Shown here piece after piece: positions 560-2,631 of a stretch of DNA of 64,000 nt; within the stretch, counting starts at the first letter, position 1; each line of letters starts with the position of its first letter. The stretch spans positions 568,813 to 632,812 of the forward strand of contig CAZVVT010000001.1 of assembly GCA_964630595.1 (NCBI GenBank), written 5' to 3'. Made by a program: the position numbers and the translations under genes. A model generated the notes under the pieces. That model searched no databases. It had not been told where the DNA came from and saw only the letters and a program-made list of their open reading frames with translations. This DNA comes from an uncultured bacterium (GTDB lineage: Bacteria > Chlamydiota > Chlamydiia > Chlamydiales > VFKH01).

Positions 560-1547
560 AGAGGACTATTTCAACACCCGCAAGGATGCCAAGCAGTTGC
601 GTAAGCTGCGCGGCCAGATGGACAAGTCGACTCCGAAGAAAGAAGAGCCGATGCCTGAGGGGCTGCCGGAGGGCCGAGTCATCTCCATACGGTCGGAAGC
701 TGTTGATGTTGCTATGCCCACAGGTGTGCTGCAGTGCACAATCAAGGGCTCTCTCAAGCAGCACGTTGGGCGCATCAAGAATATCGTCACGATTGGCGAC
801 CGCGTGCTGGTCGATGAGACGCAGATCGCCTATGTCTTGCCGCGCACGAGCGTCTTATCGCGCATTGACCCGAAGAACCACCGCCAAGAGCAGCTGCTCG
901 CCGCCAACATCGACCAGGTGCTCATCACCTTGTCAGCACAAACGCTCAAGCCGCACCTTGCCGACCGCTTCATCATCGCCGCGCGCCAAGGCAACATGCA
1001 CCCTCTCTTGGTCGTCAATAAGATCGACCTGGCTTATCCAGAGGAGTTCATCGAGCTCTACAGGAGCTTGGGTTATACCGTTCTTCCCGTCAGCGCTCTG
1101 TCGGGGAAAGGGATCAAAGAACTAAAAGCCGCGCTGAAGGGAAAGACCTCGGTTTTTGCGGGGCAATCAGGAACGGGCAAGTCATCGCTCATCAATCGCG
1201 CGCTGGGCGCCAACTTGCGCACTGCGGAGATTGTTGCGTGGAATGAGAAGGGTTCGCACACCACCACGGCCGTCACCCTCATTCCTGTGGAGGGTGGAGG
1301 GTACTGCCTCGACACGCCTGGCATCCGCTCACTGGGCATTATGAAGCTCGAGCGCGGTGACCTGATCGAACAGTTTCCCGAAATCGCCGCACTCAAATGC
1401 CGCTTCGCCGACTGCACCCACCAAGGCGAGCCCGGCTGCGCCATCGAGAACGGCACCGTTCACCCCATGCGCTACGACTCCTACTGCAAGCTGCAAGAGG
1501 AGATCAACTCTGTGCGCCGCCCCGGCAAGAAGGACCCGTCGTTCTAA
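519..1547 (+). CDS. rsgA: Ribosome small-subunit-dependent GTPase A (circularly permuted GTPase)
   Basis: Permuted G motifs VVNKIDL (G4), GQSGTGKSSLIN (G1), DTPGIRS (G3) and C-terminal Zn cluster CRFADCTHQGEPGC. Start ambiguous (ATG 519 or 546); overlaps the upstream gene. Confidence 0.9.
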   Translation: MPKLELSYYMDYAEEDYFNTRKDAKQLRKLRGQMDKSTPKKEEPMPEGLPEGRVISIRSEAVDVAMPTGVLQCTIKGSLKQHVGRIKNIVTIGDRVLVDETQIAYVLPRTSVLSRIDPKNHRQEQLLAANIDQVLITLSAQTLKPHLADRFIIAARQGNMHPLLVVNKIDLAYPEEFIELYRSLGYTVLPVSALSGKGIKELKAALKGKTSVFAGQSGTGKSSLINRALGANLRTAEIVAWNEKGSHTTTAVTLIPVEGGGYCLDTPGIRSLGIMKLERGDLIEQFPEIAALKCRFADCTHQGEPGCAIENGTVHPMRYDSYCKLQEEINSVRRPGKKDPSF

Positions 1548-1692
1548 TTTATCTACATTTAATTCCACTTTAAGTGAACCTAGTTCAGAATAGCTCTTCT
1601 ATAGTGGCATAACGAAGCAGCAAGACCAGATTCTCTTCCAGCAACGATGCGGGGATAACTCTGAAAAACCAGAAACACCAAGGAATATAAAT

Positions 1693-2496
1693 ATGAGTCA
1701 TGGAAAGCATTTTCCAGGTGCAAGCTACTACTGCATCTTAGAAGGAGACTCTCGATTCCTATTAGAACACTTAGGCTCGAGCGACCCTCTGTTCAAACAG
1801 CGCATTGAATTCAAAGAAAATTTAATTAACGATTTAGTTGCGAGAGTAGCGGATGCTGACCTTAAAATTAATCTGCTTTTAGAAATAAAAGAGATACACC
1901 ATGAAGAAAAAAGGAAATACCTATCAGCAGAGGAGTCTCTTGAATCTAGCCTTCTGGATGATGCTATACAAACAAATGTATTGGAAATAGCGGAAATTCT
2001 CGATGAATTTCTTAATAGGCTCCGCACAACGATTCCTGCCAGCTGCCATTTGTTCAGAAAGTCCACAAAAATTCTAGGTACAACAAGTGAAGTTTTTCAG
2101 AAAACATATATCTTATCTCGGTCTTTTTTATTTCCTGAGGTTGACGATGCTAAAAGTAATGGGAAGGTAAAAGATAGTTACTTTCACTCCATAGCTGACC
2201 GATTAAAAGCTATCGGAGAGCCAATTCTGACATTCAGAAACAAGGTTCTGGCCCACAAGTATGATAAAGACAGATTTTACACGCATTTATCCTTCGAAGA
2301 ATACCGCAAAATCAGAGATGCTTTTAAAAGCACTCTCGATGCTGTAGCAATCGTCGGAACATTATCTTCTAATGACTGGTTCATGACAAGATCACCTATA
2401 GAGATCAAAAGAACCACCCAATGGTTAACTGAAGGCCTTATAGCAGCTGCGCTACCTATTCGCAGAAACGGGAATACGGAGCCTACTCAACCCTGA
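1693..2496 (+). CDS. Hypothetical helical protein with HEPN-like R-x5-H motif (FRNKVLAHKYD); cargo of AT-rich islet 1
   Basis: 267-aa ORF with an AAGGA SD-like sequence about 8 nt upstream. Sampled 60-nt lines are 27-43 percent GC versus about 55 percent in flanking genes. No family recognised by eye apart from the RNxxxAH motif. Confidence 0.6.
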   Translation: MSHGKHFPGASYYCILEGDSRFLLEHLGSSDPLFKQRIEFKENLINDLVARVADADLKINLLLEIKEIHHEEKRKYLSAEESLESSLLDDAIQTNVLEIAEILDEFLNRLRTTIPASCHLFRKSTKILGTTSEVFQKTYILSRSFLFPEVDDAKSNGKVKDSYFHSIADRLKAIGEPILTFRNKVLAHKYDKDRFYTHLSFEEYRKIRDAFKSTLDAVAIVGTLSSNDWFMTRSPIEIKRTTQWLTEGLIAAALPIRRNGNTEPTQP

Positions 2497-2532
2497 TTTA
2501 GGTTAGCCTTAGATGCTAGGCGCTCCTTTAAC

Positions 2533-2631
2533 AACGGCGCCGTTCACCCCATGCGCTACGACTCCTACTGCAAGCTGCAAGAGGAGATCAACGCTGTGCG
2601 CCGCCCCGGCAAGAAAGATCCGTCATTCTAA
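2533..2631 (+). repeat. Orphan duplicate of the rsgA 3' end (32 codons + TAA)
   Basis: 94/99 nt identical to 1449-1547. Translates NGAVHPMRYDSYCKLQEEINAVRRPGKKDPSF* versus NGTVHPMRYDSYCKLQEEINSVRRPGKKDPSF* in rsgA. No rsgA body lies upstream of it. Confidence 0.95.

Follow-up and report, generated by a model that had tools for sequence, protein, structure and literature searches.

Introduction

By what route did a foreign gene come to lie directly behind rsgA, the gene of the ribosome small-subunit-dependent GTPase A, in an uncultured chlamydia-like bacterium, and why does the end of rsgA occur a second time, with no gene body attached, on the far side of the newcomer? The locus, here called islet 1, lies in a stretch of 64,000 nucleotides of contig CAZVVT010000001.1 (assembly GCA_964630595.1, positions 568,813 to 632,812 of the forward strand), referred to as the window. 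The uptake and fixation of foreign genes by obligate intracellular bacteria such as chlamydiae are poorly understood, and the routes known so far depend on integrases, on conjugative islands or on long homology at the flanks. An earlier annotation, made by a model from the letters alone (the original prediction), had proposed an integration at rsgA. The foreign nature of the DNA between the repeats, its placement at the rsgA end and the duplication of that gene end are borne out by our analysis; the locus had, however, been treated as a single islet, and the same architecture was found four times in the window. Islet 1 represents a true insertion into the chromosome, and its ~1 kb of DNA came from a chlamydial lineage of low GC content or from a mobile island of that lineage. 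Four islets of one build in 64 kb suggest recurrent gene acquisition that does not depend on an integrase, and with this recurrence, what has to be explained is no longer one integration event but a mode of acquisition.

The rsgA end is duplicated around a low-GC insert

Pairwise alignment of 1449-1547 with 2533-2631 is ungapped over 99 nucleotides (nt) and contains five mismatches (95% identity), in agreement with the earlier annotation. Two of the differences change an amino acid (ACC/GCC, Thr/Ala; TCT/GCT, Ser/Ala) and three are synonymous (AAG/AAA, GAC/GAT, TCG/TCA), while a run of 53 nt inside the repeat is identical. In a self-BLAST of the window this is the strongest non-trivial pair (E = 3e-38), and the repeat occurs there in only two copies. 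Its left edge falls on a codon boundary of rsgA and its right edge exactly at the TAA; extending it to 110 nt adds only noise, with 5 of the 11 added upstream bases matching. The upstream copy keeps rsgA whole and the downstream copy is a relic. The left repeat edge is palindromic: the relic reads AACGGCGCCGTT at 2533-2546, perfect over 12 nt and holding GGCGCC. In the working copy (1448-1461) the center of the palindrome is GGCACC, and together with the preceding G of the original target the sequence would have been a perfect 14-nt palindrome.

The DNA between the copies amounts to 985 bp and begins immediately past the rsgA stop codon. Its GC content of 0.395, compared with 0.59 in rsgA and in the neighboring eno, confirms the AT-rich insert with one open reading frame (ORF) that had been described. 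This ORF, cargo 1, is the sole credible one of the insert, with AGGA 8 nt ahead of its ATG, and it leaves only 145 nt of non-ORF DNA on one side and 36 nt on the other inside the repeats. Because no terminator-like site was found between rsgA and cargo 1, and because the cargo has this ribosome-binding site of its own, it is probably expressed by transcriptional read-through from rsgA, in which case the two genes would be co-transcribed; no promoter scored above chance.

Cargo 1 is in frame with the relic that follows it, and recomputing this relation gave the same result as before: the TGA is followed by 12 sense codons (FRLALDARRSFN) and the 32-codon tail, such that readthrough of the stop codon would append 44 residues. 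Against such readthrough, the cargos of the other two co-directional islets (3 and 4, see below) are out of frame with their relics, by +1 in both, which fits the caveat, given with the idea itself, that a shared frame arises by chance in one case out of three. Judged from the reading frames, the arrangement in islet 1 is most likely a coincidence.

The same architecture occurs four times in the window

A window-wide search for direct repeats revealed three further islets, with repeats of 63-122 nt that are 83-86% identical and one low-GC ORF per insert. The positions of all four are collected in Table 1. The inserts measure 646-996 bp and each carries one ORF and very little flanking DNA. The four targets are unrelated to one another, and the duplication lengths differ (99, 122, 63 and ~65 nt). 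Three of the four cargos (islets 1, 3 and 4) are co-directional with the gene they follow, which makes their expression by transcriptional read-through plausible. The target ORF is complete in islets 1, 2 and 4 and is not faithfully restored in islet 3, where BioB is altered.

In islet 2 the duplication comprises the 5' end of tyrP1 together with 44 nt upstream (122 nt, 86% identity). The copies diverge unevenly, by ~39% in the 28 nt before the start codon and by 7% in the coding part, which uniform decay of a relic does not explain. Its cargo gives matches to the Pfam families AAA_18, AAA_33 and CPT, all of them weak, and has a GC content at third codon positions (GC3) of 0.31-0.33. In islet 4, 996 nt with a GC content of 0.466 lie between the coding repeats (30286-31281), and the stop codon of the ORF is 4 nt from the relic.

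In islet 3, the repeat stops 9 nt short of the old bioB stop codon, and BioB therefore ends in 19 foreign codons instead of in SR and a stop. The Cass2-like ORF has no stop codon of its own and terminates inside the relic, whereas its homologues end 0-6 residues past the domain; nucleotide homology to the related contig L017 ceases at 12611. These break points look arbitrary. The GC3 of this cargo is 0.37, compared with 0.39 in its homologues.

Table 1. Positions in the window of the four islets, their repeats and their cargos
Feature	Position	Strand	Remarks
rsgA (ribosome small-subunit-dependent GTPase A)	546..1547	+	intact; Pfam RsgA_GTPase 2.3e-47; last 99 nt are repeat copy 1
Islet 1, direct repeat copy 1	1449..1547	+	working rsgA 3' end (NGTVHPMRYDSYCKLQEEINSVRRPGKKDPSF, then stop)
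Islet 1, low-GC insert, 985 bp, GC 0.395	1548..2532	+	starts immediately past the rsgA stop codon
Islet 1, cargo ORF, 267 aa, all-alpha, invariant FRNKVLAHKYD motif	1693..2496	+	family restricted to Chlamydiales-like contigs
Islet 1, direct repeat copy 2, orphan rsgA tail (NGAVHP...INAVRRPGKKDPSF, then stop)	2533..2631	+	no gene body attached; non-coding relic
Islet 2, repeat copy 1, orphan 5' end of tyrP1 (Trp/Tyr permease)	27228..27349	+	E and R at conserved G positions
Islet 2, insert, 673 bp, GC 0.409	27350..28022	-	P-loop kinase-like ORF 27393-27968, minus strand
Islet 2, repeat copy 2, working tyrP1 5' end	28023..28143	+	tyrP1 gene 28067-29143
Islet 3, repeat copy 1, inside bioB 3' end	11914..11976	+	bioB then reads 19 new codons from the insert
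Islet 3, insert, 646 bp, GC 0.438	11977..12622	+	Cass2/GyrI-like ORF 12142-12645, Pfam PF14526 4e-28
Islet 3, repeat copy 2, orphan bioB tail	12623..12685	+	63 nt, 83% identical to copy 1; P to H in conserved TTPNP
Islet 4, repeat copy 1	30250..30314	+	last 36 nt of tyrP2 and ~29 nt downstream
Islet 4, insert	30315..31281	+	311-aa ORF 30342-31277, no family match
Islet 4, repeat copy 2, orphan tyrP2 tail	31282..31344	+	coding 36 nt 86% identical; whole repeat ~65 nt

Cargo 1 and its relatives in low-GC Chlamydiales

The protein encoded by cargo 1 has 26 homologues at 54-78% amino acid identity, one of which comes from a named organism, "Chlamydiales bacterium 38-26". The loci of the homologues have a GC content of 0.36-0.41, and the nucleotide similarity to their contigs, 72-80%, is confined to positions 1683-2490 of the window, i.e. 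to the ORF and its ribosome-binding site. The GC3 of cargo 1 is 0.36 and that of the homologues 0.34, and third-position differences between them are equally frequent in both directions. Considering that native host genes have GC3 values of 0.59-0.78, and that all homologues lie in low-GC Chlamydiales contigs, the insert of islet 1 is foreign by composition and homology; it is of the low-GC chlamydial type and shows no drift in the direction of host composition.

The relatives have a gene pair in which the homologue comes second and an overlapping or adjacent ORF of 67-68 amino acids lies upstream (5805-6008 in contig L005 and 1826-2032 in contig L009; MPTKD...TVYMTEEEETLLNELFIKRLRERKK...). 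This suggests a two-gene module, possibly of the antitoxin/toxin type. The pairs are located in islands with a Phage_integrase gene (tyrosine integrase) and IS66 (contigs L005, L006 and L009), or near AbiEi genes. The 67-amino-acid partner gene was not detectable in the window, and nothing of the island context, whether integrase, IS66 or partner, was carried into it.

Two of these contigs contain repeat-bounded structures themselves. Directly downstream of the cargo 1 homologue in contig L009, a 67-nt direct repeat that resembles the 3' half of a tRNA (2969-3035 and 7199-7265) brackets an ABC-transporter island with a tyrosine integrase, which is a classical integrase island, unlike the islets of the window. 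In contig L010, of the Chlamydiales bacterium 38-26 type, a direct repeat of ~1 kb (4915-5891 and 11404-12383), comprising a pair of DUF1398 and Metallophos_2 genes, surrounds a 5.5-kb segment whose first gene is the cargo 1 homologue. The repeat copies are 85% identical in one half and 99% in the other. This is a larger structure of similar general shape in another chlamydial genome.

With respect to the function of cargo 1, no significant match came from Pfam, NCBIfam, PADLOC or PHROGs, from a profile search of the PDB, from Foldseek against the PDB or from a tblastn search of plasmids. The AlphaFold prediction is all-helical, with a mean confidence score (pLDDT) of 78. The invariant RNKVLAH motif of the protein bears a resemblance, and no more than that, to the Rx4-6H motif of HEPN proteins.

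The integrated structure in independent assemblies

Were the layout an artifact of assembly, the sequence would represent an empty site together with a separate circular or strain-variant molecule of 1,084 bp that was misthreaded through the 53-nt core. Unitig L002 of the Logan collection (run SRR12808457, 1,091 bp), an independent assembly, is 100% identical to the window and contains both junctions of islet 1. It starts and ends within the identical core, where a graph with k = 31 must break, and the k-mers are the same for both resolutions; alone, it is therefore compatible with integration as well as with an empty site accompanied by a circle. The other islets are more informative. A single Logan contig of 27,994 bp spans islets 2, 3 and 4 at 100% identity, and contigs of two further Logan runs cross islets 3 and 4. 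In islets 2-4 every identical run is shorter than 31 nt and cannot mislead a graph of k = 31; the host genome therefore does contain the integrated structure with its flanking repeats. The integrated order of islet 1 would then follow from the source contig, which is 644,759 bp long, and from its likeness to islets 2-4, making a misthreaded assembly hardly credible. Strain variation was looked for as well, and the Logan contigs of the host organism, which reach only 1.2 kb past the window, are 100% identical to it throughout. In reads, an empty site would appear as rsgA joined to GGAACAAGTT, and a circle as ...CTCCTTTAAC joined to the core and then to the tail of copy 1.

Search for recombinases and element ends

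No mobility gene was found in the islet 1 insert by Pfam, NCBIfam, PADLOC or PHROG, and Pfam detected no integrase or transposase among the 23 window ORFs scanned. Searching the window by tblastn with the integrase and IS66 proteins that lie beside the relatives of cargo 1 gave no match. Inverted repeats or attC-like structures were not found around islets 1-3 (islet 4 was not scanned), no shared motif or core was visible on inspection of the four junctions, and Rfam reported one tRNA and no other family across the window.

Three types of known element were considered and rejected. A transposon or insertion sequence does not agree with the lack of terminal inverted repeats (islets 1-3) and of a transposase, or with a duplication length that is not fixed (99, 122, 63 and ~65 nt). 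A diversity-generating retroelement does not agree with the differences between the islet 1 copies (A/G, T/G, G/A, C/T and G/A), which are not adenine-specific, and the insert has no reverse transcriptase gene. An integron cassette was rejected on the basis of the missing attC, a site of imperfect inverted repeats of 57-141 nt, the 3' flank of the ORF of only 36 nt and the absence of IntI among the scanned ORFs. More generally, islets with differing targets and variable repeat lengths would not result from a recombinase or transposase whose site or stagger is fixed.

The host and other features of the window

The window has a GC content of 0.538. Its RsgA has a single exact entry in the protein collection (P0027, on the NCBI contig of 644,759 bp), and the next RsgA is 50% identical. 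Ranking below this nearest protein, the named matches are metagenome-assembled genomes of Rhabdochlamydiaceae, Chlamydiales, Chlamydiia and Chlamydiota, and scans of genome and metagenome contigs with RsgA yielded nothing above relatives at 37-40%. Because of these low identities, the host is placed by its sequences as an isolated, unusually GC-rich chlamydia-like lineage without a sister genome for comparison.

GC3 falls below 0.46 in six ORFs of the window, four of which are the islet cargos. The other two adjoin islet 3 (12719-13675, an ankyrin-repeat protein, GC3 0.45) and islet 2 (26594-27163, 189 amino acids, without a family, GC3 0.37). A search for repeats flanking these two ORFs gave local alignment scores no higher than those of shuffled controls; the ORFs might be insertions at these same places that are older or arose in another way.

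Two further loci bear on how DNA could enter and be processed in this organism. A CoiA-like competence protein with CoiA_N and CoiA_nuc domains is encoded at 53424-54128, and a recD-recB-recC cluster occupies 56685-62853; together, these predicted genes provide circumstantial support for DNA uptake and the processing of linear DNA in the host. The ORF at 56171-56761 is extremely rich in proline and glycine in its N-terminal half (PPPPPAPPPPGPSGPPPAGPPGPSGGGGGGPPP...), and the precomputed Pfam matches of Logan contig L016 give no family for it. A near-perfect palindrome of 23-29 nt (AAATGTAAAGCGGCTTTACATTT) overlaps the eno stop codon at 2729-2756 and has a second copy, at 96% identity, inside recB (58073-58101); it was not called as a terminator.

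How the islets may have arisen

For islet 1 we favor, tentatively, an origin by integrase-independent, illegitimate insertion with a long and variable target duplication. The two strands of the target would break at points separated by 36-122 nt; a foreign fragment, possibly taken up by competence, would be joined in, and fill-in synthesis would duplicate the interval between the break points. Alternatively, a collapsed replication fork could copy the foreign DNA and re-enter the chromosome behind the break. The relic would decay afterwards, and the five differences between the copies would have arisen mostly after the insertion. One such event per islet would account for lengths that vary, breaks that look arbitrary, the lack of element features and a location at gene ends. 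That all four islets lie at gene ends can be attributed to survival, because in a gene-dense genome such events would persist only where the duplication rebuilds the gene end. The break points of islet 3, which left BioB with 19 additional codons and Cass2 without its stop codon, argue against an element evolved to restore its target. Also in favor of this origin, the inserts keep the composition of the genomes of their relatives, as the GC3 values of cargo 1 and cargo 3 indicate.

Several observations weigh against it, most of them concerning the divergence of the copies. Pooled over the four repeat pairs, there are 17 synonymous and 9 non-synonymous differences, which gives a ratio of non-synonymous to synonymous divergence (pN/pS) of 0.18. 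If a neutral relic diverges from a fully constrained working copy, ~39-46% of the differences are expected to be synonymous. The probability of finding 17 out of 26 is then 0.006-0.03 with unbiased mutation and reaches 0.05-0.2 once an AT bias of 2-5 is combined with a transition/transversion ratio of 2-6. The synonymous excess, significant only with unbiased mutation, is thus no more than suggestive; it would fit a copy brought in from a relative, where it had evolved as a working gene end. None of the four pairs is identical, though recent events should be, and the GC3 of the cargos has not shifted towards the host despite a synonymous divergence of ~0.43 between the copies in islets 3 and 4; the latter would be compatible with the proposed origin only if neutral DNA here drifts towards AT. 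The protein, genome and metagenome searches yielded no genome with an empty site, which would be the direct demonstration of an insertion with duplication. Finally, the molecular mechanism of the class of insertions with long target duplications was never established experimentally (Furuta, Abe & Kobayashi 2010, PMC2853133).

Which of the two copies is resident and which imported is ambiguous: the nearest RsgA, at 50% identity, is too distant for the comparison, and the internal evidence points both ways. The unshifted GC3 of the cargos would speak for young insertions, and hence for differences that existed beforehand, yet it does not separate the models, as the AT-ward drift of the relics shows that DNA free of constraint gains no GC in this genome. 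Several features speak for an in-place duplication with subsequent decay. At third positions, the relic has A/T where the working copy has G/C in 11 differences and the reverse holds in 4, all three of those in islet 1 being of the first type. The relics of islets 2 and 3 look decayed, to judge from non-conservative changes at conserved residues; in the tyrP1 relic these are G to E and G to R in the conserved VAGTTIGAGMLALP motif, in which the working copy and the paralogue keep the glycines. For the two amino acid differences of islet 1, an alignment of the C-terminus, in which the outgroups are too distant to rely on, indicates that the Thr and Ser of the working copy are the residues of the nearest RsgA homologues, which weakly points to them as the ancestral state. 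The longest identical runs of islets 3 and 4 are ~10-13 nt, too short for a crossover by RecA if the differences predate integration.

The excess of synonymous differences fits a different history, in which homologous recombination brought in one of the copies and the donor was a close relative of high GC content that already carried the rsgA end together with the cargo, the five differences being allelic. The DNA could have arrived as a small circle looped out in a sister strain or as a linear piece with a one-sided homologous anchor. Its entry could have been of the Campbell type, with one crossover inside the 53-nt core, or could have followed homology-facilitated illegitimate recombination, the resident end being displaced downstream. 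By a rough likelihood ratio, the observed pN/pS is ~18 times likelier under two constrained alleles than under decay. The identical run of islet 1 is long enough for RecA, recBCD and a CoiA-like gene are present, and the displacement of 3' ends that become orphans is the model proposed for effector arrays of the Rhs (rearrangement hotspot) type and of the type VI secretion system (T6SS) (PMC5361080). Such an import, however, needs an earlier event that placed the cargo by the gene end in the donor, and therefore explains spread rather than origin. It is also difficult to reconcile with the short runs in islets 3 and 4, at 83-86% identity, and with the damaging changes in the relics of islets 2 and 3, which are unexpected in a working allele. 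In islet 1, the resident tail would have to hold the A/T-ending codons and the imported tail the host-like G/C-ending ones, and no relative above 50% RsgA identity is known. On balance we regard an import as rather unlikely.

The synonymous excess would also fit the remnant of a site-specific integrative element, that is, a tyrosine-recombinase island that had used the 3' end of rsgA, supplied a surrogate end and was later reduced to one gene, leaving a pair of attachment (att) sites as in a cis-mobilizable element (CIME). Relatives of cargo 1 do sit in Phage_integrase/IS66 islands (contigs L005, L006 and L009), with a classical tRNA-bounded island beside the L009 homologue, and the stop codon is precisely where the repeat of islet 1 ends, as would be expected of a surrogate end. 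Yet neither an integrase nor a fragment of one was found, and the 145 nt and 36 nt that flank the ORF leave no room for it. The homology to the islands of the relatives is limited to the ORF and excludes the 67-amino-acid partner, inspection of the four junctions showed no common core motif, and the C-terminus of BioB is not restored by the supposed surrogate end of islet 3, where the cargo also lacks its own stop codon. Moreover, four different targets in 64 kb would each have had to be cut down to exactly one ORF. Taken together, the remnant of an element is improbable. Another sequence of events, a local tandem duplication between the copies of which foreign DNA was inserted later and independently, appears very improbable. 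In its favor, tandem duplications of short stretches occur commonly, and the copies have the same orientation; however, foreign DNA and repeat meet exactly at both edges, without any additional host sequence, a coincidence that would be needed four times, and there is no evident reason why a 99-nt tandem copy spanning a stop codon should have persisted until an insertion occurred.

The illegitimate insertion that we favor could also be part of something more regular. A dedicated integrase-free route, possibly linked to competence, might deliver fragments of ~1 kb to gene ends with duplications of 36-122 nt; the resulting islets might loop out as circles and re-enter related cells by recombination between the repeats, behaving as a recombinase-less cassette. 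We consider this unlikely. If it were true, the full 644-kb contig should hold dozens of islets of graded age, which would constitute a first natural series for the mechanism. Many events of different ages in one genome would be a data set from which the mechanism could be worked out. On a practical level, orphan gene ends beside low-GC ORFs mark recent gene transfer in metagenome-assembled genomes, and such repeats break short-k assemblies.

Comparison with known systems

Elements such as phage 21 and e14 at icd of E. coli, and CIME remnants, leave the end of the target gene twice, one copy being an orphan, with mainly synonymous differences between them. They encode, or derive from elements with, a site-specific recombinase and have a defined att core. 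Islet 1 resembles them in that it lies in the 3' end of a housekeeping gene, with one copy completing the gene and the other an orphan. The islets differ in that no recombinase, remnant of one or common core was found in the window, and in that the gene end of islet 3 is not faithfully restored.

Integron cassettes share with the inserts of the window the single ORF, the size of ~0.6-1 kb and a location where a host promoter could drive the gene, and the cargo of islet 3 belongs to the Cass2 family, the 'integron-associated effector binding protein' family. In contrast to cassettes, the distances after the ORFs are 36 nt, 4 nt or negative, there is no attI or IntI, and the flanks are host gene ends, which integrons do not produce.

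At Rhs, contact-dependent inhibition (CDI) and T6SS effector loci, incoming DNA that is anchored by homology displaces the resident gene end downstream and leaves a repeated fragment (Kirchberger et al. 2017, PMC5361080). A repeated orphan gene fragment is likewise characteristic of the islets. Those loci, however, have a long conserved anchor and carry toxin/immunity modules, whereas the targets in the window are housekeeping genes with no relation to one another, and as anchors the repeats of islets 3 and 4 would lack both the length and the similarity.

The closest described phenomenon is insertion with long target duplication, which is said to have been reported already by Nobusato et al. 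in 2000. The later survey describes inserts that are free of mobility genes and have on either side a copy of an otherwise unique sequence, 45 to ~420 bp long; overlap of the duplication with a gene's 3' end is frequent, most cases are in naturally competent species, and insert and host differ in GC content (Furuta, Abe & Kobayashi 2010, PMC2853133). Cases were defined there by direct repeats of >30 bp that are otherwise unique, an insert of <20 kb without mobility genes, an empty site and restriction-modification (RM) cargo. Islet 1 agrees with this description in its repeat of 99 nt, present in only two copies in the window, and in its 985-bp insert, in which no mobility gene was found. The window repeats are 83-95% identical, however, whereas those of the survey are mostly 93-100% identical and are backed by a genome with the empty site (PMC2853133). 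A second difference concerns the cargo: the surveyed cases carry RM genes, and the process was tied by the authors to DNA breakage by those enzymes (PMC2853133), whereas none of the four cargos of the window (all-alpha, P-loop kinase-like, Cass2/GyrI-like and a 311-amino-acid protein without a family) is of this kind. A literature search for similar reports in Chlamydiae found none, and four such events in 64 kb of a Chlamydiota-like genome have, to our knowledge, not been described. The four repeat-flanked, single-gene islets would thus represent a variant, with non-RM cargo and in another phylum, of a known class whose mechanism has been open since 2000. If the same process is at work in both, the non-RM cargo and the high density of the islets suggest that DNA uptake and repair by the host, rather than restriction enzymes, are responsible for it.

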